NCBI GenBank assembly: GCA_030248215.1
Contig: JASANG010003765.1
Location: 1-64,000, forward strand
Direction of reading: 5' to 3'
DNA: 64,000 nt
DNA from: Enoplolaimus lenunculus
Taxonomy: Eukaryota
The notes beneath the pieces were generated by a model that was given only the letters and a program-made list of their open reading frames with translations, was not told the DNA's origin and did not search any database. Made by a program: the position numbers and the translations under genes. This document shows, piece by piece, positions 756 to 56,088 of this stretch. Each line of letters opens with the position of its first letter. Position 1 is the first letter of the stretch.

Positions 756-3700
756 ATGGTAGTGCTGGAACCAAGTGTATCGCGGTTTGGTTAAGCACTC
801 CAGGCAAAAATTGTCACTAAGGTTGATTGGGATACAAGATATTACATATTTTAGACAACACTACATGATAGACTAAGAATAAATTTATTAATTAGTTTAG
901 AGGAAACCACTGTGAGTTGTGTAGCGTTTACGAATACTTGTAAGTTAGCATATTTGTCGACTGTCGATACGTTTGCCTCGTCACTTATAGCAGAGTCTAC
1001 AGTAATTGTAGCGTTTTATTATTGTTGTTGTTGTTATTATTATTATCATTATTATTATTATTATTATTGTTGTTGTTGTTATTGTTATTATTATTATTAT
1101 TATTATTATTGATTTTTCATTATTTTAGCATCATATCGAAGCAACACTGGCCGCGTTATCATTAGCGGTCGGCCAGAACCAGTTCGGTACGGAAGTAGCA
1201 GCTCACGCAAGTTTCGGAAAGCATGTGTTTGTTTTCTGATTTTGATTCTGTTTGCTGCTATCGCTGCAACTCTTGGCGTTGTTGTGGCTTTGTACATTAA
1301 GCGAAACAAAGGTCAATCGACAAGCCCAAGTCCTTTGTCAACTTCCAGCGGTTTAACTTCGACAACAATATTTTCAACTGCCACTACTCCAGGTAAGCTT
1401 TGCTTTAATACATACTTGGGATTCTGTAATTGTTTAGAACATCGACAGCGTGTAATTTTAAGTTAAATATCGGACACGAAGCCTATAACTCATTATGTGG
1501 CACTGTTGCGAAAATAATTGTGACAATTTTAGGGGTTTTTAGTTGTAATTATGCAAGCGTTTGTTTTGAAATTATATCTGATGTGTTTTAAAGTGTATTC
1601 ATATATGTCGTGGCCGATCTGCTATTCAGTCCACTGATTTAATTGGCCAAGGCCGATTGGGGGTTGATCTTCGGAAAATAATTACCGAAAAAATGTGTTT
1701 TTTCATTCTTTTCCTTTTTTCCGAGGGGGTGGAAAAAATTGAAAAAATGGAAAATATTAAACGATTCTTAAAGATACCAACGGAGAATTTTTCCATTAAA
1801 TATAATTTACAACTAAAATGATGTACAATAACGTTTTTAGATGACATGTAACTACTTTACATGCAATACATTAACAATAACCGTGTGTATATGTCCAACA
1901 AGACACATTATATGTCTGAAAAGAGCGAAAATTGCAGCATATGAATATATTGATTTCTGAACTGAAGCTTTGCCACGAGATTTGATGTAAAACTACATAT
2001 ACATCTTGTTCGGTTCGCTCATCAGGTTTCACCGATAGTGGGGCCAACGTTAGGGCGCTCAAAATTGAAAGCTTACCTTTACCGCATGACTTAACACAAG
2101 AAAACGTCTATAGATTCAACCTTGCTTTGCTCGGGAGGTTTTAGCAACTGAGGAGCTTTTGATGTCATGTCAGAGGACTCCCAGAAGCGTGTTGGGGTTC
2201 AATATATACTTACAAAAACAAGTGTGACTAGCTAAAGACGAATATTATTAAATATTTCCCAATCAGACGTCTGGCTAACGAGATATTGTCAAATAACTAA
2301 ATTTGGCGAAGAACCATAATCGCAGGCAGCGCGCCAAATCAGTTGTTTGACAACAACTCGTTAAGCAGATGTCTGATCGCAGAAAACTTAACGCCAATCG
2401 ACTCAGCTGTGTAAACTGCGTCAAATGATACATAATTTGTCTAATTTTCCAAAAAAATTTTTGGGTCCAAAGGGCTGCTGACCTTGTGGCCTTAAAAATA
2501 GAATTTCTCGAAAATTCAGGTTTGGGCGCGGAATGATTAGGTGATATGTCATCAGAAGCTGAAATAGGCAAAAAAATTTAAAAATCCGAGCATTTTTGGG
2601 TAAACGCCGGCTTAGGGTTGGATAACCGATCACTACTGAGACAATGAATAAAATTATTCATTTTTTGCCATTTTTTCCGGAAAAATAGGAAAAATTCATT
2701 TTTTTCGGTTCTAATTTATTTCTGGACAAAAACAACCCTGTGCTATATATTGTAATAGCAAGTTGGCCTGGGCTAAACAGCTATTAAACTTATAGACCAA
2801 CCAGATTGGAACATTTGCATCACTGTTGTTTTGCGAAATCTTACAATCGCTATTTGGCCTTCGCCAAACTGCTATTTGCTTCGAATAACAGATTTTCCTA
2901 GACCAATTGGTAATTGGCCTGAATAGCAGATTGACCTGCGACATATATATATACTACACGCCACTAATTGTTACGAAATTACAAAAGCGAAACTTGCTTT
3001 ACAAATTTTACGCTAAAGAATTGACATCGTGATGGAAGTGTTATTAAAACCTGTCTAAACTTTGTGTTTTCATTCTTTAAGCGTATCCTTCGTACGAATT
3101 CAATGCACAGATCGAAGATATATCACAGCCATATGTCGAAGCGTTTGCTGATAGTACAAGCAAAGAATACAAGAACTACACAAGCCAGTTTAAGAAAAAT
3201 GTAAAGTTATTAACCAAGGTGTAACCGGATATCCGGTTCCGTTATTTTGAATCTTCACGTTTCTGATTTTCGTTAATTTTACTTTCCGTTTACACCCTGT
3301 TATTAACCACTCCTCACACACGTGAGATAAGAAAGAATCATTGCATACGCGCAATACACACAAAATGCGCAGGGTTAAACAATTAATACACGTATACGCA
3401 GTACAAAACTTTCCCAAGCTGTTGTAGCGCCCACGGAAAATAATTTTGCTGTTAAGCTAGCTACTTCCACTGTGCATAGTGCTAGTTTGCATAACATTAG
3501 TTGTACTTCCGCGTTGACAACTAGTTGCGGATTTTGTAGTCGAGAGAAACGGCTAGGTAGGATTTGTGGTGGTTCGTAATAGCGGTGTATGCTACATATT
3601 GTTTTTGTTCTTATTGTTTCATTGTAGGTTATATTTTGTGTTTTGTTGTATATTGTTATAGGTGTTTTTGTGATATCTTAAATAAATATAAAATTGACTA

Positions 3701-6700
3701 TGGTGGCCGGGCCGCTTTTGTTTTTCGTCATATTGAACACCTTCATAAATGGTGACCCCGACGTTGGTTTCGACGTCATTCGTCAAAACTTTGCATTTTT
3801 GTTCGTGCGATGGCCACAGCCGTTTATGCATCTCACAATCAATGCGATTGGTTGGTCCGCGGGTATAGTGCTGATCGTCGCGGTTGTCGACGCAATTGTA
3901 GCATGTTTACGGTGGCGCTTTGGGAAAAAACTCAGCGATAAACGTCGGCGACAAGAATGTGGTGTTCGCACGAGTCGCAAGAGAAGACAAACATACGGCA
4001 ATGTAAAATTGAGCTTATTGTCTTTGTTTACATATTTATGTTTGCAAATTCATGGGCATGATTATTGTGTTGCATTGCAGAATAATAGTGTTTTTGGGTG
4101 TTCTCGCATTTCTTATTTGTATGTTTCATGCGAGATTAGTGTGTCACATGCTTCGAAAATTTTGCGCCAGCAGCTCGTGAAGAAGCGAATAAAGTTTGAG
4201 AGGTATTGCGCGGGTAAGATAGGTTTTAGTCAAGCGTCTGCGTTAAGGCTTTTATTGCTTGTGGCGGGGGATATTGAGTCTAACCCCGGCCCAACGTTAA
4301 ATTTTGTGACTCCGCGTAATGAAGTGATGTCTTTATTCTCAGGTCCAACGTTTTCTTGTCGAAAAAGTGTTTTTCAGGCCCACGTAGCCTGCATTACGTC
4401 TGTTGAAGCTGTTTCAGATGTTCTCAATGTGTTATTTGCACATAGTAAGAAGATTGCGTCAGCCACACACAACATTTATGCATATAGGTTGAGCGCAGGT
4501 AGTGGGGATGATTCTGGCTATCAAGATGACGGGGAGACTGGTGCTGGTCGGCGGTTGCTTAAGGCTATAGAGCTAGCTAGCGTTACCAACGTAGTGGTCA
4601 TTGTTACGCGCTGGTACGGCGGAGTACATTTGGGGGCACATCGTTTTAGGATTATTTGCTCCCTTGGATGTGATGTACTCAAGAGTATTCAAGTTGACCG
4701 ACACTTGGTGATGCACAAAAAGTCTCCTCAATTATTGAATGAGAAACGCGAAGTTACGAAGGCATCGAGAGCATCAGAAGTTTTGACGAGTTGCAGGAAA
4801 CTGCCGTTACGACAAAAGAAAGTCGTTGAAGATTTCTTCCCCAGCTCCACATTTTGCAGTAACTTTGACTCTGGTCGTGACCGTGTGGACGGGCAGACAC
4901 GACGGCTTCTGGTGCAACCAGTGCAAGTAACAGGTAAAGGCAAGGACACTAGAAAACCTTTTGCTACAGTTGTGCGCCCATTTCCTGGTTTGTTGTTAGG
5001 ATTTCGCTTTTATGTGGTGTTTTTTGTTGTTTTGGTAGTGTGGATTAGATTTTTGTTATCTGCTGATGCGGAAATTATACCACGGCCACTCCGAATTATC
5101 ACGTGTTCTCAGCGCGTTTCTTGTATGTTATTTGGTACTAGTGATCGGCACGCTACTCAGTTGAGAATTTTGCTCCTAATGGCAGGCATAGAACCAAACC
5201 CTGGGCCACCGAAGTTGGATATCTCCGCGTTAGATAAGTATAGCAGGGAGACACTTGCACGGGCGCTGCAGTTAATTAATGAAGATGACATGGACTATGT
5301 CATGCCAGGTACAAAACGATTGATTATGGATGCTTTAGCTTTGTTTCCATCGGGTATAGTTAGTGTCGCGTTAAAGTGGGCGGACGGCAGACCGCAAAAC
5401 ACATCAGCAGAAGCGGTTGTAGATAATCGATTACCAAAACTTCCCGAATTTTACCAGCGAGATGTTCGAGTGTGGTTTACTCAGATAGAACCGTTAATCG
5501 AGGGGTTTTCGGACACCGCCAAGCGCAATGCACTATTAAACGCGCTTCCAACGAACGTGATGATTGACAGTGGCACTACAGCAACTGAAAGTTATTCTGC
5601 CATCAAAGATTGTGTACTGAATTACTTTGGCCAAAGTGAAGAAATGCAGTTGCGCAAATTGCTGGAACAGCAAACCTTAGGCGATAGGAAACCTTCGGTT
5701 CTGCTGCGCCAACTTCAATCTAAAGCGCCCGGTCACGCCGAACTCGTCAAGCTTCGTTTTATGGCTGCTCTTCCTGAAAAAGTAAGAATTTCGTTAGCAG
5801 TTGTAGATGATATGAATATTGAAAAACTGGCCAATCTTGCTGACAAAATATTGGAACAGTTGTCACCGGGAGTTGATGCTGAGGCTGGCATGTCAGCGGA
5901 AATTAGAAACATTAATGCTGACACCGCTAGCGTATTGCGTGAAGAAATGAAAACAATGTCGAACAGCATAGCACAGATAAATAAGCGAATGGAGGGTCTG
6001 AATAGATCGCGTGATCGGCATCGGCAAAATGGGCATAGGTATTCCCATTCTCGTCGTTCTGGGTCTAATCACCGTTCGTTGCCGCGCCAGAGGTTTGGCA
6101 ATCGGCAACTTTGTTTTTACCATTCAAGGTTCGGCGTGAGGGCCATGAAGTGTGTGAAGCCATGTGACTGGATTGTTAAAAAACCGGGAAACGTGTGGTC
6201 TCCGGTTCCACAGCGACAGGAACCGGAGTCCACACAATAAACGTCGCAACGCCCGAGTTTGGAATATTTTTGGCGGATACCGGCAGTGTTAAAAGTTTTC
6301 TCCCGAAGTTGTTTCGAACAAAAGATTGTGTTGATAATAATTCGAGTGCGCAAAACTTTTATGCAGCAAATGGTTCACTTGTAAAAACTTATGGGACGAA
6401 GGAGATAACTTTCCATATTCCCCAAATTGGTAAACAGTTTTCATGGAATTTTATTATTGCTGACGTTTTGCAACCTATCTTGGGGTCCGATTTTCTTAGT
6501 GAATACAATCTTGCTGTTGATTGCAGAAACTGCCATTTGATTGATGGATCAGCTATAATTAGAAAAGGGGATAGTTATGTTACCAATTCTGTTGCAAGTG
6601 TTGCCTCGCCTGGTGCTATCTGTTCGTTGGTTAGTAACAATAATGAAGATCTCAAGAAATTATTGGTCGAGTTTTCAGCACTGTTTAATAAGCCGTTGTG

Positions 6701-9700
6701 TGGGAGTAGTGTTCGTCATAAGATAACCCATAAAATTGAGACGAAAGGGCAGCCAGTTTTTGCTAAGCCGAGAAGAATTTTCGGGTCTAAACTTGATATT
6801 GCAAAAAAATCATTCGAAATACTTGAAAAACAGGGTGTGGTTTATAGAGGAGAATCCCCTTGGGCTTCCCCCCTTCACATGGCTCCTAAGAATGATGTTG
6901 TAAATCCATGGCGGCCATGCGGTGATTATCGCCAACTGAACAAGATCACGGTTCCAGACCGTTATCCTATGCCTAATATAACAGATTTGACTAATCGGTT
7001 AGGGAATTGCAACGTCTTTTCGAAGGTTGACCTTGTTTCCGCCTATCATCAAATACCGATTGCTGAAGAAGACCAAGCCAAAACAGCTATTACTACGCCT
7101 TTTGGTTTGTTCATTTACCGGCGCATGCCTTTCGGATTGCGCAATGCTGCGCAAACTTTCCAAAGATTGATGGACACTATTTTGTGTGATTTACCCTTCG
7201 CAATAGCTTATCTTGATGATATCTTGATAGCTAGCGGTAGCTTCGAGCAGCACGTGAAGCATTTGCGACGGGTTTTTAAGCGTTTGGAAGATAACGGTTT
7301 GCAGCTTAAAATGAAAAAATGCGAGTTTTTTGTTTCTCAAACATTATTTATCGGTTTTGAGGTTTCATCTAATGGTTTTAGGCCTATTTCGAGCAAAATT
7401 GATGCTATTTTGAATTATGAAAAGCCACAGACGGTAAGGAGTTTAAGACGTTTTGTTGGTATGGCGGCTTTTTATCACCGCTTTATCCCTAAGTTCTCTG
7501 AAATTGCCGCCCCCCTTACAGATCTGACAAGAAATGTTAAGAAAAATTCGAAACAACACTTGGTCTGGAATGCCGTGGCTGATAGATCATTTACTAATCT
7601 TAAGAAAGCATTAAGTAACAGTCGCACTTTATGTTTTCCTGTGGAGCATGCTGTTTTAGAAATTACAACTGATGCGTCTAATGTGGCAGTTGGAGCTGCT
7701 CTTAATCAGGTGGTTAATGGGCAGCGACAACCATTGTCATTTTATTCTCGTAAGCTTACAGATGCTGAAAAGAAAAAGTCGACCTTCGATAGAGAACTGC
7801 TTGCTATTTATGCTGCACTGAAGCATTTCAATTGGTTGCTTGGTGCTGAGTTTGTAATTCGTACTGACCACAAGCCTTTAACACATGCATTGGGAATGAA
7901 AAACGCAACGCCACAACAGGCCCGTTGGCTTTCATTTATTTCTGAACATAGCTGTTCTATTGAGCATGTTTCAGGCTGTGACAATATAGTGGCCGATGCG
8001 TTATCACGTTCTGGCTGTTTGGCGGTTCGTTTTGGTGACGACGATGCAATTGCTACTGCACAGCTGCAGGATCACGCTTTGCAACGGTTCTTCGAAACAA
8101 CGTCATTACCACTCCAAAAACTTGTTGTGAATGGTAAAACGTTAGTTTGTGATGCAACTACTGCATCGTTGAGAGTTTATGTTCCAGATTCGATGAGGCG
8201 CGCAATTTTTAAAGGTATCCACAACGTAGCTCATACTGGCCCGAAACCTACATTACGAACTATCGCTGAACGTTTTGTTTGGCCAGGAATGAACAAGCAA
8301 GTTCGTTATTGGTGTAAGGTCTGCAGCCAGTGCCAAACCAGCAAGATAGGTCGTCACACGCGAAGCCCTGTCGGAATTATTCCCACATCTGCCAGGTTGG
8401 ATACGATTCATATAGATATTGTAGGCCCTCTGCCAAATTCTGGTGGCTGTTCGTATCTTTTAACCATGATAGACAGGTTTACACGATGGCCTGAAGCGTG
8501 TCCAATTCCAGACATGTCAACTGTTACCATTGTCAATGCTTTTATCACTTCTTGGGTAAGCCGTTTTGGAGTTCCTCGTGTTATTATTTCAGATCGGGGA
8601 GCGCAGTTTGAGTCAGCAATTTGGTCCGAACTAATGCAGCAGTTGGGCATCGAGCGGAGAAGGACAACGGCATATCATCCATCCTGTAATGGTGCCATAG
8701 AGCGTTTTCACCGATCGTTGAAGGCCGCTCTGCGCTCGAAATGCGATTCGTTTAACTGGACAAAGCATTTGCCACTTGTTCTTTTAGGTCTCCGTTGTGC
8801 TATCAATCGAGATGGTTTCAATCCAGCTCAAGTATTATACGGCAAAAGTTTAGATTTACCCATTCATTATTTTTTTTCGAAAACACCTGAATATAAAGAG
8901 TACTCAAATCAATTTTTAGAGCAATTTTTCTCGGGGTTAAATAGTTTTTCAGTTCCTTCGCGGAGCCACAATGTTCCGTGTTTCGTACCGAAGGATTTGG
9001 GGTCGTGCAAATTCGTTTGGGTCAGAAATGCTGTACCTCGCAACGCTCTACAACCGCGCTATACGGGTCCTCATAAGGTCATTCAGCGGGATGGTAAAAC
9101 GATCGTTCTGGAGCAAAATGGAAAAGAAACTCGTGTGTCAATTGATCGCACAAAGCCCGCCTTTCTAGACGTGACCGTTGCTCACGGGATAGAGCACGGG
9201 TATCAACAGCTTAACGGAAAGGGCGATGGGCACAAGCGAGTGTTTAAAACGATTCTAAGAGCGAAGGTTACAAATTATAAAATGTTTAACCCTGCAACGC
9301 TTGCACACGGACATGTAGTGAGCGCTAAGGTGAAAAATTTTCCATCTTGGCCCGCACGTGTAGTTAGTATTGTTAATACACCTTTAGAAGCGCTTAGACA
9401 ACCAAAAAATACATGTGCAGTTCAATTTTTTAAAACTAATAGATATGCATTTATTCGGTATTCTGACTTGAGCCGTTTTACATTTAACACACAAACGAAT
9501 AATTCTGTTTTACGTTGTGCCTTACGTTTGGCAGAGGACTCTATTGAGAAGATTGGACTCTTCCGTGATCGTGTAAACAAAATACCACATGACACAGTTC
9601 ATTTGAAGCATGTTAGTTTTTTTGGAGGCATTAATTATCTAAAAAACCGGCGCTCCGCTCATAACGGCGGGGGTAATGTAGCGCCCACGGAAAATAATTT

Positions 9701-12700
9701 TGCTGTTAAGCTAGCTACTTCCACTGTGCATAGTGCTAGTTTGCATAACATTAGTTGTACTTCCGCGTTGACAACTAGTTGCGGATTTTGTAGTCGAGAG
9801 AAACGGCTAGGTAGGATTTGTGGTGGTTCGTAATAGCGGTGTATGCTACATATTGTTTTTGTTCTTATTGTTTCATTGTAGGTTATATTTTGTGTTTTGT
9901 TGTATATTGTTATAGGTGTTTTTGTGATATCTTAAATAAATATAAAATTGACTATGGTGGCCGGGCCGCTTTTGTTTTTCGTCATATTGAACACCTTCAC
10001 TGTGAGAGTTCTCTCAGTGCTTGAGCTTCATCCTCGTGTATAGCTGACCTCAGCAAAAAAAGCTCTCGGCACAGAATCTTTGCTTAAATAAAGATATCAA
10101 ATTGAAATGGAAAATGTTCGTACTGTGAAACGACGTTTTCTATAAGGCATCAATGTGCGTTTCAATTTTAAATGATGCAATATAATTTAACAAACTGCAT
10201 TTCACTACTGCGTTTTGCTTTATAAAGATGAACTCGGGTGTGCTTGACTTACTCTGTTAATTACGCCACCTCATATATGCACCAAAATTTAAATAATCAT
10301 GCCGCACTATATTTTTTCAACCTAAATTTGTAAGCGTATATATCTATTGTTGCAATACTTATATTTATCACTTTTGCAGTTTAGCGGCTTTTTTGAACCG
10401 TAACGACAGCTAAGTTTTGATGATATTGAATTGGTTTAATTTGCACAAAATGTGGACAATGTGCAAAGAAATAGGCTCTCGGACAAAGTCGTTGGTCTTA
10501 GGTGATTGGCTTAAACTTAGGCAAAGGCTAACATTTTGTGAGACCCTTTCCAGATATAGAAATTTATGTATCATGGTTTGTGTTACTATCGATTTTGGAT
10601 TTGCAACTCTGGTCAAGCAAAAAAATAGCGACACCTGTCTGAGACCGTCAGTTGTACCCTGATGTTAGAACAATGTTCGTAGTAACACATGCAAATTTAC
10701 AGAAAACGCGTCTGATTGCTAGAAAATAACGATTGCTGTCTAAACGGTACAGTGGCGGATCCAGGATCTCAAAATGGGGCTGGGGCCAAAATTTCACACG
10801 TAATAAACTTACTTTTGACCCATACACAAATCACGAACTATTGTCACAAAATTGCTATATAATTTTTGTCGAGATGCTGTTGGGGGCCACGGCCGGGGTG
10901 GGCCCCCCATGGATCCGCCATTGAAACGGTATGCCTTAGAACCGCGTCAAAGACACACAGAACGCTTTTTGTGTTTTAAAAATTCGTTTATATTCGTTGT
11001 GATAAACTCTAAAAAACGTTTAGATTTCACTGTTCAAGCGATTCATTTTAGATTTTGTGTGCTTGGAGCTACTTGAAACATGGTTGATTTTACGGAAATA
11101 TTCAATCAACCTAGGCAACGGGTTTGTTAGCTTTTTATCGGAAAAAAAACAAAAAAAAGCTTTAAAAAATTGAAAAACACGCACTTCTAGTTCAACAAAT
11201 GCAAGGACGGTTAATAGATGCTAAATCTGGTACCAAAGAGATACTGAGACTGTCACATGACTAGTTTACTAAATCTATATGGGGTACACGGTACATAAGT
11301 GTCAGATGCCCAAAAATGCCACCTGCCACTTTGGTGGCCACAAATCTTTTGAGTTTGAGTTCGGTATAGATTTTCCTCAATAGAATTTGTAGTTTCATTG
11401 TTCACATGAATACAACCAAAAGTTTAGTTCAAAACTAAAAGTGTTATTTAGCTGGAACGTTGATCAAGCAAAAACAAGAAAATGAAAATATATAATATAT
11501 ATACAGCAATAATTTTAATGCTAAAGAATTCTGTAGTGAGTGACCCGAATACGAGGATGGTAATACTATATTTTACCTCTCCAGAAGGTGCCCACCACAA
11601 CCCGTTATTCGGTTACGGACTGTAATTAATTTTCATTCCCCCTATGTAGTTAGACGGACCTAACGTCGTTTTCTATATCTTTTCATTAGTGTAGGACTGA
11701 CTTTTGCTGGTTGCCATATGCGTTAGTTTTTTTCTGAATTTAATATAGTTTATAAGGGTTGATTGAATCAATGTCTGTTACATATATGAGCAGCACGCGC
11801 TATCCTGTTTTGGTCTAGTTTATGGACTCAGTTAGGACTTATGGACTCCATCCATAAACGGACTCGGAGTTTTATTAGGGATCAAGGGCGTTCCCACGGA
11901 GGGCGGGCATTGGGGGGGCCGTGCCCCCAAAGTTTTCGCTGGTGGACCCCTTATAGACTCGGTCTAAAAGTAAAACAATTTTGAACTGCAATTGTAGGGG
12001 CCCCAAAATTATTCGGTGCCCCCAAATAGTGACACGTAAAATTTGAACCTCTCCTATAAATCTATCTTTTTTGTGTGACTACAAAACGGTTTCCTTCTAA
12101 AATCATCGTGAGTAAAATCAGACCTCGGCTGAGGCAACAAAAATTACGTCACTTTCCAATTCAGCTTCATCACAGATACACAGAGCGCAAGTACCAAACA
12201 AAGTCTGGTATATTCAATCAAACAGGTATTACAAAATTCAGCAAATCAGATCAGCGCCGTTGACAATTACGCAAAACACGAACCGAATGGAAGGCGTGAG
12301 ACAAACAATTCGCCAAACTTTCCGCGACTATTTGTCGCTGTTCCGCAAGTTATTTGCTAAAATTAATACATTTTTAAAAAGAGATTTTTTGCACCACTTT
12401 GATAAAAAATGGCCGATTTTCCGTTGATTTTTTCCGATGACCAGCCTTGACTTTAAACTCAAAAAGCGTTCAGAACTGGCTTTTTCTTTGACACGTTTCT
12501 CTTTAATAGTATTTTTAATGTTATCATTTTTGCTGTATATTTTTTAGGTATCGACTGGATTTGATGAAAACATTCGTGATAGTTACAGTTTAACAGTTGA
12601 CATTATAGATTTGAAAAAGTATGTTCGATTACTGTCACCCGATACATTATACCGAGAGTGCATAATGCAGCATGCATGGAAAATAGTACTTATGCAGTTT

Positions 12701-15700
12701 GAGTACACGGTGCGTTCAAAAATCATAATCCAGTATAAGTTACGTTTTGGTGCCCCGCCCTATTTATATATGAAGGTATACCCACTGAACGTATTTTTGC
12801 AATTTGAACTTTTGCAATAATCGTCAGCACCGAGTCGCTTTGTCTATATGCACAAAAGTAACTTTTTAAACTGCTTTTCATTAAGTTCATAGGGGGTCCA
12901 TATTCCATACGTCCGCCGGGTTCATATAAGCTGTATTCTAGGCTACTCAAACATGTAACACACTCAGACAACCCGTATAAATGGCAATTAAGAAAAATGC
13001 ATCAGAGCAAGTTGGTTCAGCTTAAATGAAAAAATATAAAAAAGAAAGATGTTGATCCAAGTCACAATGAGTGAATTTAGAACAAATAACAGTTCGCAAC
13101 AGAATAATAGAGGATATCCTCTGGAAATGCAAAATAAATATCAGTCCCCCTTGTATTTGTGTCGCTTCGAGATTATGCATATTTTTGGACATAAGCCTAA
13201 GCGTAAAAATAAGTGTTAATCTTAGGCCTAAGTCTAAGAGCCAAAGCAAAAATAATCTACGATCTAAACCTACTGTATTGATATGGACCTAAAAGTCACT
13301 CTCATAGGTGAAGATTCCTTTTTCACGATTCATATCTTGACGCTTGCTGGTTGTCTTATGTAAACTTAGCATTAACAGATCAGCGTTAAAAATACCTGAT
13401 ACGGAGTTTATTATATAAAATTAAAAGGTTCACCGCCGCGGACCCTTTTCCTGCTTCACCCACTTGATATTTAAATCTGCTACAACACCATTTTACATTT
13501 TAGCTCAAGCGAGTTACCTGCGACACAAGCGTTTAACACATGGAACAGTATTAATACCATCAAAACAACGGAAGCATATGTTGTTGTTGACTTCAGTATA
13601 TACTTCTTTAAATACCCCAACGCAACAGATGCACCACCAATTGATGATAAAACAGTCAGACAGGGTCTGGAGAACGCAACCTCCGATTGGAATGTTCGAG
13701 AAGTTACAAGTAAAAACTAAATAACAACATACAATTACAAGTTAGCTCGGTTGCTGACCCAACATATTAAATGGGTCAAACAGTAAGACGCGTAGCCAAG
13801 CTTAAAGCTTGCGAGGGTACAAAATTGTGTAAAAAGAAATTTTCTTACCTCTAGGATCCAGAACTTCGTTCCAAACGCTGTGCAATGACGTTTTTCTTGT
13901 TTCCTAAAATTGAGGAACGTTCGTTGTATGCACTTTGGTTTAGTATGTTGAAATTTTTTCGTATCAATAAGCTTTTATGAGAAACCGTCGAAGTTTGCAC
14001 AAATAATGCACTTTTGGATCGAAAGGGGGGTATCGGCTATCCTGGCATTGCCCTTAAGCGACTAAAACCAACGTTTTGTATTAAGGTTTGGCAATAAATG
14101 GCGAGTTTTTTTCTATTTATCATCTTGCCCACCCTATCCTTAAATATTTAGTGAGCCGTCGGTTGTATGACGTCATATGCGCGCAACATTGTGTTGTAAA
14201 TATCGTGCAATTGTACCGACGTGCTCAACTATAGTTAAAACCAATCACAAATTCATGTAGAGTTAATGTCCACTAAATAATATTTAAAATTGTCAACTTC
14301 AAATTTTGTAGATAAGCGTTTGGCGAGTTTTTATTTCTATTAATCATCTTGCCCACCCTTTTTTTAAAAATTTAGTGAGCCGTCGGTTGTATGACGTCAT
14401 ATGCGCGCAACATTGTGTTGTAAATATCGTGCAATTGTACCGACGTGCTCAACTATAGTTAAAACCAATCACAAATTCATGTAGAGTTAATGTCCACTAA
14501 ATAATATTTAAAATTGTCAACTTCAAATTTTGTAGATAAGCGTTTGGCGAGTTTTTATTTCTATTAATCATCTTGCCCACCCTTTCCTTAAAAATTTAGT
14601 GAGCCGTCGGTTGTATGACGTCATATGCGCGCAACATTGTGTTGTAAATATCGTGCAATTGTACCGACGTGCTCAACTATAGTTAAAACCAATCACAAAT
14701 TCATGTAGAGTTAATGTGCACTAAATAATATTTAAAATTGTCAACTTCAAATTTTGTAGATAAGCGTTCGAATTTCAATATGAATGTTTGAACTGAAACT
14801 TAATATTCCCGTGATCGATTCCCAATTTTGTAATGATGAGTTTGTGGCTTTGAAGTTACCGTAAATGCGTATCGGAACATCGGCCCATGTAAAGATCAGG
14901 GGTGGAATGTTTTTCCGTGGGACTAGTATAAGCTTAAGCTTTAGACTAATTTTTTGATTGGCTTAGGCTTACGCTTAGGAATAAGCTCATCCTTGTGCTT
15001 ACGCTTACGCTTAGGCTTAGGAACTGTTCCGCTCCTGTTCTTTACATTGGCTAGAACATCGTTGAATAACTGTAGTAATTAAGGTTACTGTGACAATGAC
15101 ATATAACCAGAACCATAGTACTTTTAAGTTATGGATGTGTTTCCTAAAATTTGGTTTCAGACACTCGTGAGGTTCGAGCTCACGACACACGGCTTACCGG
15201 TCCACTGCTCTAACCACAAAGCTGCGCTGCAATGCAAAATTTCTGTTTTACAATGGTTCTATATACCGTAAGACTTGTAGCAGCGATTAGATGCGTATAT
15301 GAACACGCCGCGGAATTGTTTACTCCTATACTCTAGCTCCTTTGAACATTTGTGTGTTTCAGACGATAACGTTACAACTCCATCTACTCCAGCAGCCACA
15401 TCAACTCGATCAGTTTCGACGGGATCAACTGGTGCCATTAGTTCCGCTTCAACGGCATCTGAGGCAAGCACAACGTTCTATTCAACAGAATCGTCGCCGA
15501 GCGCAGAAACAACTGCTGGCTTTTCGAGTATGACGTCAGAAATAACGACAGCAACTCGAACTGCAACGACGGAAGGATCAACTACAGGCCTTTCGACCAC
15601 AATGACAACTGAAACAGCAATTTCTACCTCTTCGATTACGACAGTTACTGAAGCAACAACGGCTTCTCTAACTGTAACAACTGCAGAAACAACTACAGTT

Positions 15701-35444: not shown

Positions 35445-35868
35445 GTACTAAGAATTTATAATGTTTAGTTTAATCAAAAAATATGTAAGCTAGTCTAGAA
35501 AATTAGTTTAATATTGCGGGATTAGCTTAGTACTAAGAATTTATAATGTTTAGTTTAATCAAAAATATGTAAGCTAATCTAGAAAATTAGTTTAATATTG
35601 CGGGATTAGCTTAGTACTAAGAATTTATAATGTTTAGTTTAATGAAAAAATATATAAGCTAATCTAGAAAATTAGTTTAATATTGCGGGATTAGCTTAGT
35701 ACTAAGAATTTATAATGTTTAGTTTAATGAAAAAATATGTAAGCTAATCTAGAAAATTAGTTTAATATTGCGGGATTAGCTTAGTACTAAGAATTTATAA
35801 TGTTTAGTTTAATCAAAAAATATGTAAGCTAATCTAGAAAATTAGTTTAATATTGCTGGATTAGCTTA
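35445..35868. repeat. Minisatellite, 5 x about 85 bp
   Basis: Units gtactaagaatttataatg...gcgggattagctta start at 35445, 35530, 35614, 35699 and 35784. Confidence 0.95.
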
Positions 35869-47619: not shown

Positions 47620-48969
47620 GGATACAGAATATTAATGAATTTAAAAATATATATTTTAATTTTATTTTTTTATCAAGTCATACTATATTATTATAAAGGT
47701 TAAAATATAATTTGTTTCACAGGTACGTTTTTGCTATGCTCTGCGCCTGTTTCAAAATTAAAATTTCGTTTGTTTCTGATTATTACGTTTTAGTTGTTTT
47801 CTAAACTTCTATGCTTTCAACAGGCAAACTGAGACCATGAAAAGTTGCCGTCTTATATAATTGCAAAGAATGTAAATAGAAAAAACAATGTCTAAACTAA
47901 AATAGTTGTTATTTTCAAATAATCCAAGAAATAGTAGTTTGCTAGCGTGATAGCTAAACATAAAACTAGTTCGAATTGTGGTAAGTATGCCCACTCAGGC
48001 ATGGGTCAATTTTTGACAACAAAGGTAACTGATAATAACTTGAAAATCAACAAGAAGATTCGGGAGATATAGGCCAAACAAAAGTTTGCGGATTATGACC
48101 GTAGCGAGGTTCCATGTAAAGATCAAGGGCGGAACGTTTTTCTGTGGGACTAGAAAAGAGTAACCTTAAGCTTTAGACTATTTTTTTTGCTTGGCTTAGG
48201 CTATGCTTAGGCTTAGGCTTAGGAATATGCTCATTCTTACGCTTAGGCTTAGGCTTACGTTTAGGCTTAGGCTTAGGAATATGCTTATAATACTGTTCCA
48301 CACCTGTTGTTTACACTGGCCGTAGCGAGCAAGAAATGTTTCTTGATGCCTTCGTCCAAAATGTTATTCTGAAACCTGTCAAAGTACCGTTGTCTCATGT
48401 CAACAGACTTTTCGGGTAATACCATTCGATCGCCTTTGTATATGCCTCTGAAAGAATATCGGTTCATCATAATTTTCAATGTGACTTAAGTATTATTTTA
48501 TTCATTAAACACATTCAGCTACGGAATATGACAACTATTGACGTAGTTAGCAATGCAGGCTGCTTTTGCAATTTATACTATATAAATTTCGTTATTGCAA
48601 GTTTCAGCTGTTAAATAGTAATTATTTCTGTTGAAAAATATACGTTTGAATATATTCAACATTTAAACAAACTCGACAATATTTATCCACGTGCTCATCG
48701 GTGGAAAGAGCTATTGGAAATACACTTCAAAAAAACTAATAACATAATATGAACTCAATTATTGTTTCAACTACTGACTCGAGCAATCGTTTACGAAATA
48801 AAGTAGTATACCGTTGTTTTAAGAAATAGTATATTTCTCAACTTTCAGCAACTAAAACCAGGCGACAAACGAGGTGTTACTGTTCAGCAAATAAATAAAA
48901 TCGTTCGACAAATAGTCAAGAGCCAAGAAGCAGTTACACGTTAATTATACGAGTGCATCAACATGAATT

Positions 48970-56088
<7,119 letters not shown>

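Follow-up and report, generated by a model that had tools for sequence, protein, structure and literature searches.

Positions 3423 to 9999 of the 64,000-nucleotide stretch analysed here (the window) are a complete, intact and recently inserted LTR retrotransposon of the CsRn1 type of Ty3/gypsy elements. In our preferred reading, to which we give a probability of roughly 70%, it belongs to a sub-clade that we did not find described, in which predicted 2A (StopGo) peptides split hydrophobic leaders from Gag, and in which a PWWP domain of the HDGF/LEDGF type on the integrase (IN) likely tethers it to H3K36-methylated chromatin. The element was assigned to a sub-group because relatives from other samples share both the 2A skip signal and the PWWP reader. 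In the literature searched we found no description of this combination, or of the sub-group, in agreement with an initial annotation made from the sequence, whose author knew of none.

All features given below lie on the forward strand. The two LTRs (3423 to 3745 and 9677 to 9999) are each 323 bp long, start with TG, end with CA and are 100% identical, and they are flanked by the target site duplication (TSD) CTGT (3419 to 3422 and 10000 to 10003). The primer-binding site (PBS), TGGTGACCCCGACGT, lies 4 nt past the 5' LTR (3750 to 3764); its first 14 bases were found again in 13 of 91 CsRn1-like loci, and the PBS of the CsRn1 clade is termed a tRNA-Trp site in the available text of its description (PMC2582038). 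The initial annotation had named these ends and two intact ORFs, and had called the element a young member of the CsRn1 lineage. The identical LTRs, the TSD, the PBS of the clade and a Gag with the motif CX2HX9CX3C bear this out, and both frames are intact (846 codons of ORF1, and a Pol frame open from 6180 to 9833); the PPT that it listed is present as a purine-rich run adjoining the 3' LTR (GGCGGGGGTAA, 9666 to 9676), and is a weak one. Contig depth indicates a low-copy family of about 2 copies. Independent Logan contigs of three runs (two samples, one study) cover 3716 to 9999 collinearly, in spans of 3716 to 7154 and 7130 to 9999, each piece showing no more than 5 differences, and this collinearity excludes an assembly artefact as the source of the ORF1-Pol structure. 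The chance that mis-assembly joined the region ahead of Gag (the cargo) to a retrotransposon is practically negligible given these contigs, the identical LTRs with matching 4-bp TSD, and a 2A-Gag junction common to 14 relatives, and we found no point in its favour.

ORF1 (3700 to 6240; 846 aa) contains, in order, a first leader, a 2A motif, an IMPACT protein, a second 2A motif and Gag. The ORF1 ATG is placed within the 5' LTR, 46 nt short of the LTR end, and the frame therefore runs through the PBS; the same LTR also contains an AATAAA (3682 to 3687). No earlier ATG follows the stop codon at 3682 with which the frame opens, and the context of the ATG is A at -3, G at +4. The roughly 500 extra codons, divided by 2A-like motifs, that had been noticed before Gag are 502 codons with NPGP at aa 195-198 and 500-503. 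Segment 1 (3700 to 4290; aa 1-197) has a hydrophobic N-terminus, a predicted membrane helix at aa 48-70, a basic stretch, and 2A motif 1 at its end (QASALRLLLLVAGDIESNPG followed by P, 4231 to 4293), where GDIESNPGP agrees with the canonical GD(V/I)ExNPGP (PMC3708506). Segment 2 (4291 to 5205; aa 198-502) comprises the IMPACT/UPF0029 domain, a basic disordered linker, a predicted C-terminal membrane helix (4987 to 5055; aa 430-452), which with that of segment 1 makes up the two strong hydrophobic helices of ORF1, and 2A motif 2 (RHATQLRILLLMAGIEPNPG followed by P, 5146 to 5208), the counterpart of the 2A preceding Gag in 14 relatives. Motif 2 lacks the Asp, an important determinant of 2A activity (PMC3708506), and its octet, GIEPNPGP, is that of the active 2A1 of grusopivirus A1, for which the available tables (PMC11512398, Tables 1 and 3) report the same in vitro translation profile as for FMDV 2A. 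The two motifs have 13 of 20 residues in common and no detectable nucleotide similarity, and thus the peptide has been kept while the DNA has not. Assuming equal residue frequencies, about 3e-6 octets of the form [DG][VI]ExNPGP are expected by chance in 846 random residues; ORF1 has two, one of them exactly at the start of Gag. A point against translation of the whole frame is that a transcript beginning 3' of position 3700 would have an out-of-frame AUG as its first.

A full HMMER search with ORF1 returned 7965 matches at E<=1e-3, and among the best 150 of these, 14 have the layout of leader, 2A and Gag. These relatives come from samples other than this one and share 32-42% Gag identity with it; their leaders are 85-147 aa long, with one of 340 aa, the N-terminus is hydrophobic in 8/14, and the consensus RHxxxLRWLLIxSG(D/N)VExNPGP stands before Gag. 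A Gag tree built without leader and 2A placed all 15 2A-bearing Gags, including that of this element, in one 18-row group (SH-aLRT 100), and P0147, one of three members of the group without a 2A, starts with 'MP' precisely at the StopGo junction. As judged from these comparisons, the Gag-proximal leader and its 2A are a conserved trait of the whole sub-clade and no one-off of this copy. Among CsRn1-like loci, [VI]ExNPGP occurred in 1 of 91, as an unrelated motif far from gag, and tblastn of 79 ordinary CsRn1-like metagenome loci detected the cargo or the PWWP tail in none and Gag in 44. In a further control, Gag starts 7-50 aa ahead of the conserved Gag motif in 13 of 14 relatives examined, and the remaining one has no usable Gag start and looks damaged. 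The initial annotation had viewed the region ahead of Gag as a cassette captured by this element, and this holds only in part, since the leader and 2A next to Gag belong to the sub-clade, and among the elements compared so far only this family has an IMPACT domain in ORF1, with no Gag and IMPACT motifs together in any other of the best 150 of 7965 ORF1 relatives. The recurrence of the architecture in relatives, a check that it had proposed, extends in the same way to the leader-2A-Gag layout and the PWWP tail (8 relatives, below) and not to IMPACT.

It could be argued that the leader region is untranslated, that Gag is made from an internal AUG (e.g., M529 or M533), and that the upstream frame and its motifs are incidental. 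There are in-frame Met codons soon after the second 2A, and Gag of ordinary CsRn1-like relatives starts just past the PBS. Nevertheless, we regard this as very improbable, since chance is not expected to leave 502 codons open at 45% GC, the 2A peptide has been kept across 14 families and between the two dissimilar DNA copies here, and the ATG at 3700 has the context described above. We also think it unlikely that the 2A motifs are mainly translation attenuators, which would stall or terminate ribosomes and keep Gag and Gag-Pol output low without yielding separate working proteins, since particle building requires Gag in large amounts. In 14 relatives the 2A coincides exactly with the Gag boundary, and there is a relative whose Gag begins with Met at that junction, which fits release of a native-like Gag. 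The GIEPNPGP octet, moreover, comes from a 2A that yielded downstream product, although some 2A sequences in the same source, as far as its available text goes, end translation and leave the downstream product undetectable (PMC11512398). Attenuation is favoured by a 2026 preprint, available in part, in which most of the retrotransposon-associated 2A-like peptides tested lowered protein abundance instead of skipping (70% of ORF1p- and 59% of ORF2p-associated ones reduced abundance; 10.64898/2026.06.17.732966).

Gag (5206 to 6237; aa 503-846) carries the CHCC knuckle CX2HX9CX3C at 6112 to 6165. The predicted -1 frameshift site is the slippery heptamer G_GGA_AAC in the ORF1 frame (6186 to 6192), with a hairpin directly 3' of it (6193 to 6235; -38.7 kcal/mol, z -6.7) that was equalled by none of 200 shuffles. 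The Pol frame (6180 to 9833; 1217 codons stop to stop), in -1 relative to ORF1, ends 157 nt inside the 3' LTR and has the order PR-RT-RH-IN-PWWP, with PR (DTGS) at about 6252-6554, RT at 6885 to 7364, RNase H at 7566 to 7946, the IN zinc domain at 8181 to 8345, the IN core at 8403 to 8681, and the HDGF/LEDGF-type PWWP at the IN C-terminus (9309 to 9494). The initial annotation had predicted a PWWP-tailed integrase and expected domain searches of ORF1 and Pol to return UPF0029 and PWWP; both were found above the Pfam cut-offs, with 42.8 bits for PWWP (cut-off 25.6, E 7.9e-11) and 95.9 bits for UPF0029 (cut-off 27, E 1.8e-27).

The best solved relatives of this PWWP are LEDGF/PSIP1, HRP-2, HRP-3 and HDGF (E 4e-6 to 1e-4). 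The PSIP1 cage residues M15/Y18/W21/F44 (PMC3663649) correspond to V/F/W/F in the element, which keeps three of the four cage positions, the fourth being changed from M to V. From this likeness, the tail likely tethers integration to H3K36-methylated chromatin and so would steer insertion. A histone-methyl reader directs integration both in tethering of lentiviruses by LEDGF/p75 (PSIP1) and in chromoviruses; lentiviruses borrow the PWWP protein of the host, whereas in this element IN itself includes the PWWP as a fusion, and chromoviruses likewise carry their own reader at the IN C-terminus but use a chromodomain. Fusions of Chromo and PHD domains with TEs have been described, and a PWWP-IN fusion is not among them in the available text (Grau-Bove et al., 10.1101/2021.11.30.470311). 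The PWWP tail recurs in 8 of the best 120 Pol relatives, where it aligns with that of this Pol, and in a Pol tree made after dropping the PWWP columns, nine PWWP Pols and two C-terminally incomplete Pols formed one group (SH-aLRT 100), so that by sequence the tail, too, is a clade trait. Two pairs of records appear to link 2A-Gag to PWWP-Pol, as judged by matching source and contig size and not by DNA: P0135 (2A-Gag) and P0019 (PWWP-Pol), both Logan records with equally sized contigs (4838), and P0143 and P0015, both JGI records (7129).

The UPF0029 (IMPACT 'ancient') domain of ORF1 (4360 to 4659; aa 221-320) matches 6 relatives at all 28 columns that do not vary among them and has a confident predicted fold (pLDDT 80-95). 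Its identity to any relative found is at most 47% and its branch measures 0.81 against a median of 0.4, and divergence of this degree in an intact domain suggests long retention. UPF0029 also lies between PR and RT in P0021, a sister Pol of the PWWP clade, and at the C-terminal end of the LINE-type ORF1 proteins P0005, P0006 and P0008; the P0005 model matches the human LINE-1 ORF1p trimer as well (2yko_A, E 8.6e-5, 160 columns), and through it the solved UPF0029 relative Yih1 (6bqi) was found. That retrotransposons have taken up the domain more than once suggests that it brings some advantage to do with the ribosome or with translation. The RWD domain is reported to be the part through which IMPACT/Yih1 competes for binding to Gcn1, and the role of the ancient domain is called elusive (PMC4503747, available in part). 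The element's protein shares the domain with IMPACT, Yih1 and YigZ and differs from IMPACT/Yih1 in that a basic linker and, C-terminally, a membrane helix take the place of an RWD, and is therefore not an IMPACT/Yih1 orthologue. A simple reading of this segment as a GCN2 inhibitor is unsupported, since Pfam detects no RWD domain in it.

It is possible, though less likely than not, that only the single leader and 2A of the clade are functional, and that the second module and the IMPACT domain of this copy are a neutral passenger. Template switching or duplication would have brought them in, and their separation from Gag by the 2A peptides would be the sole reason why they are tolerated. The frame must stay open for Gag to be made, and thus the open cargo frame is no evidence of function. 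Among the variants listed for near-identical copies (an incomplete list), the cargo has 6 nonsynonymous and 1 synonymous variants (pN/pS about 1.8) and Gag-Pol has 1 and 4 (pN/pS about 0.07; Fisher p 0.07, falling to 0.03 when one site contributes both of its alleles), and variants are four times denser in the cargo (4.6 versus 1.1 per kb, binomial p 0.015). It follows from this difference that the greater part of the cargo is under weak constraint or is diversifying; the variants fit relaxed constraint on most of it, and constraint on the cargo as a whole is not evident from them. Segment 1 is an orphan with no detectable relatives, and beyond the 2A core its likeness to the leader of the clade (3.5 bits; 200 shuffles reach up to 2.1 bits) is not significant. 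Kinship with a host gene family can be demonstrated, by sequence, only for the IMPACT domain, and the earlier description of the cargo as host-derived effectors stands for the kinship of that domain and not for segment 1 or for the term effectors, while the proposed look at selection among family members gave no sign of constraint on the whole. Against a neutral passenger stand the intact invariant columns and confident fold of a domain so diverged, its presence in the sister Pol and in LINE-type proteins, and a surplus in contig depth at the IMPACT motif that matches the depths of two diverged sister contigs added together (111.2 = 46.4 + 64.8, run X2), a hint that the domain is also present in diverged sisters within this genome.

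In the preferred reading, of leaders released by 2A peptides, translation of a single genomic RNA would begin with the AUG at 3700, within the LTR. Predicted StopGo between G197 and P198 would free a membrane-type leader of 197 aa, and a second such event between G502 and P503 would free a protein of 305 aa with the IMPACT domain and, C-terminally, a membrane helix; the Gag made next would have a nearly native N-terminus. Slippage by -1 at GGGAAAC, in some of the ribosomes, would yield Gag-Pol. The ancestral module of the clade would be one signal-like leader followed by 2A and Gag, and the lineage of this copy would have gained a second leader-2A module, plus the IMPACT domain between the two 2As. 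The signal-like leader may bring the translating RNA to the ER membrane. By analogy, Ty1 RNA is reported, by another route, to be brought to the ER while Gag is translated; Ty1, in the available text, differs in having no separate leader or 2A, and the parallel is one that we infer (PMC3945221).

With the CsRn1 clade (CsRn1, PwRn1, AgCR-1 to -14) the element shares the Gag CHCC motif CX2HX9CX3C, the 4-bp TSD, the PBS, a gag/pol overlap with a -1 frameshift, the PR-RT-RH-IN order and the lack of a chromodomain, but members described in the available text have a short Gag and no leader, 2A, IMPACT or PWWP, unlike the 502 codons before Gag and the PWWP on IN found here (PMC2582038). The 2A-like sequences of APE-type non-LTR elements (L1Tc, Ingi, Rex1, CR1, L2, Crack) similarly place GD(V/I)ExNPGP, with a Leu-rich tract ahead of it, near the N-terminus of a retrotransposon ORF, and are proposed to free an N-terminal product from the main protein; those sit in ORF2p, and once in ORF1p (PMC3708506), whereas here the motif occurs before Gag of an LTR element, twice, bracketing a folded host-type domain. 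For LTR elements, 2A receives a passing mention in the available text of two 2026 preprints, whose figures or supplements may list such elements. Plant LTR elements with aORFs have extra coding capacity like that of this element, in separate ORFs and with no 2A partition mentioned in the available text (PMC7264820), and orchid Ty3/gypsy elements carry an m6A demethylase domain in-frame, again with no 2A partition mentioned there, as a host-type domain that has, as in this element, become fixed in a lineage (PMC9289625).

Positions 3423-9999 hold a complete, real and intact LTR retrotransposon. Its LTRs (3423-3745 and 9677-9999) are identical, measure 323 bp each, begin with TG and end with CA, and are flanked by the 4-bp target site duplication (TSD) CTGT (3419-3422 and 10000-10003). 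Four bases after the 5′ LTR lies the primer binding site (PBS), TGGTGACCCCGACGT, whose first 14 bases were common to 13 of 91 CsRn1-like loci and stood just upstream of gag in those checked (e.g., L010, L013, L039, L001). Presumably the site matches tRNA-Trp itself, as the published account of the clade has it; no tRNA genes were found in the 64-kb window, which hence offers no direct partner for comparison, nor were any Rfam families. ORF1 (3700-6240, 846 aa) begins with an ATG inside the LTR, 46 nt before the LTR end, and the PBS is therefore coding; an AATAAA is present at 3682-3687, and transcription would start upstream of 3700. The Pol frame, -1 relative to ORF1, is open from 6180 to 9833, and the overlap contains the slippery heptamer G_GGA_AAC (6186-6192, ORF1 frame), with a hairpin directly 3′ of it (-38.7 kcal/mol, z -6.7) that was equalled in folding by 0 of 200 shuffles. 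The identical LTRs, the TSD, the PBS and the two intact ORFs named in the initial annotation all held up, and its polypurine tract proved to be a tract preceding the 3′ LTR that is only moderately purine-rich.

The interior of the element was covered collinearly, with at most five differences per piece, by Logan contigs from three DNA sequencing runs (X1, X2 and X3; two samples, one study), and since these independent contigs are collinear, the structure is not an assembly artefact. Contig depth over the interior was ∼1.5-2.3-fold that over the unique flanks, pointing to about two copies of the element per genome. One contig from run X3 (depth 31.5 of 103) had a 1-base insertion at 6193 and a 1-base deletion at 6199, a compensated pair in the 5′ arm of the frameshift hairpin, just past the slippery site. 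Very high-copy repeats lie on both flanks (2687-2973 and 10723-11000), with summed depths in run X1 of about 9,600 and 80,000, compared with ∼16 for the unique flank.

The element has the characters of the CsRn1 clade. Its Gag carries CFYHSRFGVRAMKCVKPC at aa 805-822, which fits CX2HX9CX3C, the CHCC signature that defines CsRn1-like Gag in the available text of PMC2582038, where the PBS of the clade is given as a tRNA-Trp site. The 4-bp TSD, the gag/pol overlap with a -1 frameshift, the PR-RT-RH-IN order and the absence of a chromodomain are further traits of the clade, and the best Pol and Gag relatives were CsRn1-like, with CHCC Gags and named matches from Schistosoma, cestodes, Calliphora and Trichuris. 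A chromovirus would carry a chromodomain at the integrase C-terminus; none was found there, and Pfam gives a PWWP domain instead, behind RT, RNase H and the integrase zinc and core domains. Gag also gave a sub-threshold match to DUF7041. The domain search proposed in the initial annotation returned both domains that it had anticipated, the IMPACT 'ancient' domain (UPF0029) of the cargo at aa 221-320 of ORF1 (95.9 bits; cut-off 27), with 28 invariant columns kept, and PWWP (PF00855) at the integrase tail (42.8 bits; cut-off 25.6).

NPGP occurs in ORF1 at aa 195-198 and aa 500-503, and ORF1 can thus be read as three segments. Segment 1 (aa 1-197) is hydrophobic at its N-terminus, contains a basic stretch as well as a strongly predicted membrane helix at aa 48-70, and ends in LLLLVAGDIESNPG, directly before P. 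In segment 2 (aa 198-502) the IMPACT domain is followed by a basic linker and then by a predicted membrane helix (aa 430-452); the segment ends in RILLLMAGIEPNPG, again directly before P, and Gag occupies aa 503-846. In an AlphaFold model of segment 2, built from a 7-row alignment, the IMPACT domain was predicted with pLDDT 80-95, the linker as disordered, the hydrophobic stretch as a helix, and a further helix was placed immediately ahead of the second 2A motif (pLDDT about 70). No relatives of segment 1 were found in any search made. Its atlas look-alikes were rejected, the best score (0.79) being at noise level, and a profile of sister leaders lacking the 2A core matched segment 1 at the collinear place with a non-significant 3.5 bits.

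The first motif, GDIESNPGP, conforms to GD(V/I)ExNPGP, the canonical probe of Odon et al. (PMC3708506, as far as its accessible text goes). The second, AGIEPNPGP, does not, as it is without the Asp, and the similar GVEPNPGP is found in two related proteins, P0131 and P0135. The second motif ends in the octet GIEPNPGP, which it shares with grusopivirus A1 2A1 and which is found in active picornavirus 2As; in vitro, the translation profile of this 2A1 matched that of FMDV 2A (PMC11512398, Tables 1 and 3, from the portion available). The two tracts have 13 of 20 residues in common without DNA similarity, so selection of codons has drifted under a conserved peptide. A suitable tract upstream of a 2A is helix-prone and about 15-20 aa long; the Leu-rich tract ahead of the 2A is conserved in 14 relatives, and no scoring rule for this upstream tract is known. 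A canonical 2A motif, KQKLLLLCGDVEANPGP, was also seen at L036:742; an ordinary CsRn1-like element follows about 4.5 kb downstream, and the motif probably belongs to a neighbouring non-LTR element.

The arrangement of a leader, a 2A and Gag recurs in other elements. A word-based protein search with ORF1 gave only IMPACT-domain matches (6 of 7999 candidates), and a word-based search with the Gag region among proteins of 465-1481 aa found none; this size window left out relatives of 355-460 aa, which were later recovered by a full HMMER search of ORF1 against 1.84 billion cluster representatives. That search gave 7965 matches at E≤1e-3, and among the best 150 of these, which were examined, the top matches were Gag proteins whose alignment begins upstream of the second motif. 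NPGP was present in 15 of the 150, and 14 of the 15 are genuine 'leader, 2A, Gag' proteins (P0131-33, P0135-40, P0142-44, P0150 and P0187), with the consensus RHxxxLR(W/I/L)LL(I/L)xxG(D/N/-)(V/I)ExNPGP and leaders of 85-147 aa, one of 340 aa, which in 8 of 14 cases have a signal-like hydrophobic start. In a 52-row tree of the Gag core, from which leader and 2A had been removed, all 15 2A-bearing Gags, the element's included, formed an 18-row group (SH-aLRT 100) together with three rows without 2A. One of these three gene models begins at an internal Met, and another, P0147, begins with MP exactly at the StopGo junction, reading MPINFD... where its sisters have NPG/PINYD...; either P0147 has lost leader and 2A and now starts at the junction, or its gene model was cut.

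Among ordinary CsRn1-like relatives, Gag starts 7-50 aa ahead of the conserved Gag motif in 13 of 14, and the fourteenth, without a usable start, looks damaged. The pattern [VI]ExNPGP was found in 1 of 91 fetched loci, 4.5 kb from gag. A scan of viral_contigs found no relatives, and among the matches listed from metagenome_contigs there were only ordinary CsRn1-like loci. The closest DNA relative in genome_contigs, L080 (53% Pol identity), is uninformative on the leader because its gag carries a frameshift and its 5′ region is unrelated. This locus and those up to L091 are CsRn1-like retrotransposon contigs from assemblies (genomes and MAGs) that bear bacterial or archaeal labels, most likely through eukaryotic contamination of the bins.

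The PWWP tail is likewise found in other elements. Pol had 3914 relatives at E≤1e-3 among 7999 scored, and PF00855 was present in 8 of the best 120 of these 3914, with tails that align with the element's own; the PWWP-tailed integrase of the initial annotation is shared with these relatives. In a 37-row Pol tree, in which the PWWP columns were dropped by the fill filter, nine PWWP Pols and two C-terminally incomplete ones formed one group (SH-aLRT 100), apart from 26 other CsRn1-like Pols. The 2A-Gag and PWWP-Pol traits are very probably carried together by single elements, because the 2A-Gag P0135 and the PWWP-Pol P0019 agree in source and contig size (both Logan, 4838 nt each), as do the 2A-Gag P0143 and the PWWP-Pol P0015 (both JGI, 7129 nt each). 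By tblastn, the tail or the cargo was matched in none of 79 ordinary CsRn1-like metagenome loci, and Gag in 44 of them. The tail is closest to the PWWP domains of LEDGF/PSIP1, HRP-2, HRP-3 and HDGF (E 4e-6 to 1e-4), which account for the first 17 of the 20 PDB sequences matched. Residues M15, Y18, W21 and F44 form the aromatic cage of the PSIP1 PWWP (PMC3663649, accessible portion), and V, F, W and F are aligned to them in the element and F, W, W and F in its relatives; by this alignment the element retains the cage.

The IMPACT domain is, so far, particular in ORF1 to the element's own family, and none of the best 150 of the 7965 ORF1 relatives combined Gag and IMPACT motifs. No match in ORF1 at E≤0.01 was obtained for the RWD domain, through which IMPACT/Yih1 binds Gcn1 and which the host-type matches P0004 and P0007 carry (PF05773); because it is absent, the element's protein is not an IMPACT/Yih1 orthologue. 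Other retrotransposon proteins have the domain too. P0021, a PWWP-clade Pol that is 47% identical to the element's and branches near it, has a UPF0029 domain inserted, intact, between its protease and RT, a site (alignment A1 columns 145-290) that differs from the ORF1 location in the element. Three proteins of ∼500 aa (P0005, P0006 and P0008) run from a disordered N-terminus through a long coiled coil and an RRM-like domain to IMPACT/UPF0029 at the C-terminus; the predicted structure of P0005 gave matches to Yih1 (6bqi, E 2.6e-9) as well as to the human LINE-1 ORF1p trimer (2yko_A, E 8.6e-5), so the domain has been taken up by LINE-type ORF1 proteins too. Family-invariant IMPACT residues are kept in P0021, P0005, P0006 and P0008. 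A tree of 50 IMPACT domains was too poorly resolved to separate one capture from several, including for the element and P0021, and a supposed 'TE-type' signature, DDGExGAG, was rejected, as it occurs in 12 of the 50 domains, including those of host-type-length proteins. In P0141 (569 aa), an acidic repeat region is followed by three IMPACT-like domains in tandem.

The element is representative of a sub-clade whose defining features are 'leader, 2A, Gag' and a PWWP on the integrase, and to these its own family has added IMPACT. Translation would begin at 3700, and StopGo would free two products in turn, a leader of membrane type and an IMPACT protein whose membrane helix is C-terminal, with Gag starting at Pro503; a -1 frameshift at GGGAAAC would yield Gag-Pol, and the PWWP would tether the intasome to nucleosomes methylated at H3K36, in the way that LEDGF tethers the integrase of lentiviruses. 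The ancestral leader of the clade resembles a signal sequence, and on this ground we propose that it takes the translating genomic RNA to the ER; Ty1 is an ER precedent by another route (PMC3945221), and N-terminal signal sequences of 2A-like type are known (PMC4981915), both according to the parts of these papers available. The full reading is of an unrecognised, widespread animal-type LTR sub-clade that has arrived anew at two devices of viruses, in which the StopGo-freed leader serves ER targeting and Gag release and the integrase has its own LEDGF-type PWWP tether to H3K36-methylated gene bodies; IMPACT, in addition, would promote retrotransposition and would have been acquired independently by LINE-type ORF1 proteins and, on two occasions and in different places, by LTR elements. 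We give it about one chance in four. If true, it would provide a handle on what the universal IMPACT domain does at the ribosome; that the domain acts on ribosomes or translation is held with low confidence.

Descriptions of 2A/StopGo recoding come from RNA viruses, from non-LTR retrotransposons and from a small number of cellular genes. With 'leader, 2A, Gag' as a conserved design, LTR retrotransposons would join this list as users of StopGo in regular gene expression, and they would supply a natural, diverged set of 2A peptides. We found no literature description of a sub-clade with this design and an integrase PWWP. For 2A in LTR elements the literature found held only passing mentions: in their available parts, one preprint notes a Ty3-like RT with a 2A-like peptide at its C-terminus (10.64898/2026.06.17.732966), another counts 'LTR retrotransposon-like' contigs in aggregate (10.64898/2026.09.24.754024), and two systematic 2A papers name retrotransposons only via citations of non-LTR work (PMC12338488, PMC12846837). 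The figures or supplements of the two 2026 preprints may hold clade members. Literature on PWWP, integrase and gypsy yielded, in the accessible portions, LEDGF work and a survey of TE-chromatin fusions that discusses Chromo and PHD. Whereas lentiviruses obtain their tether from the host, the element has a PWWP on its own integrase, which would be nature's counterpart of the tethers constructed by hand in vector engineering. From a LEDGF-type PWWP one would predict that insertions fall in transcribed chromatin with H3K36 methylation, contrary to the bias of the chromodomain element MAGGY, which reportedly favours heterochromatin. To our knowledge, the IMPACT ancient domain, conserved in all kingdoms, has no known activity, and its repeated recruitment by unrelated retrotransposons would be a new lead to its function. 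That function is called elusive in the Yih1 literature (PMC4503747, available text), and no literature linking UPF0029/IMPACT with retrotransposons, LINE-type ORF1 included, was found.

Differences among near-identical copies or individuals in long Logan contigs, a small sample in which only the variants listed are counted, bear on constraint in the 502 codons ahead of Gag. The 1506-nt cargo had at least six nonsynonymous variants (D19E, K76T, R82H, K250Q, S359P and S391T) and at least one synonymous variant, and 4468 nt of Gag-Pol had at least one nonsynonymous and at least four synonymous sites, one of them with two alleles. For these listed variants, pN/pS was ∼1.8 in the cargo compared with 0.07 in Gag-Pol (Fisher p 0.07, or 0.03 when both alleles were counted), and variant density also differed between the two (binomial p 0.015). 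Taken at face value, most of the cargo would be under weak or diversifying selection. Inside the IMPACT domain, the variants listed were one synonymous and one at a variable position. Diverged sisters in the same genome are 80-88% identical to the element in parts of gag and pol, and the surplus depth at the ATHN motif of IMPACT is as large as the depths of the sister contigs added together (111.2 = 46.4 + 64.8, run X2); these matching depths hint that the sisters also carry the IMPACT domain.

Elsewhere in the window, positions 48945-54354 contain long open frames (738 and 852 codons) that are rich in poly-Asn and poly-Gln and without a Pfam family, possibly a low-complexity host gene. Tandem repeats are found at 14099-14768 (224 bp x 3, 97% matches) and at 35445-35868 (85 bp x 5, 97%).
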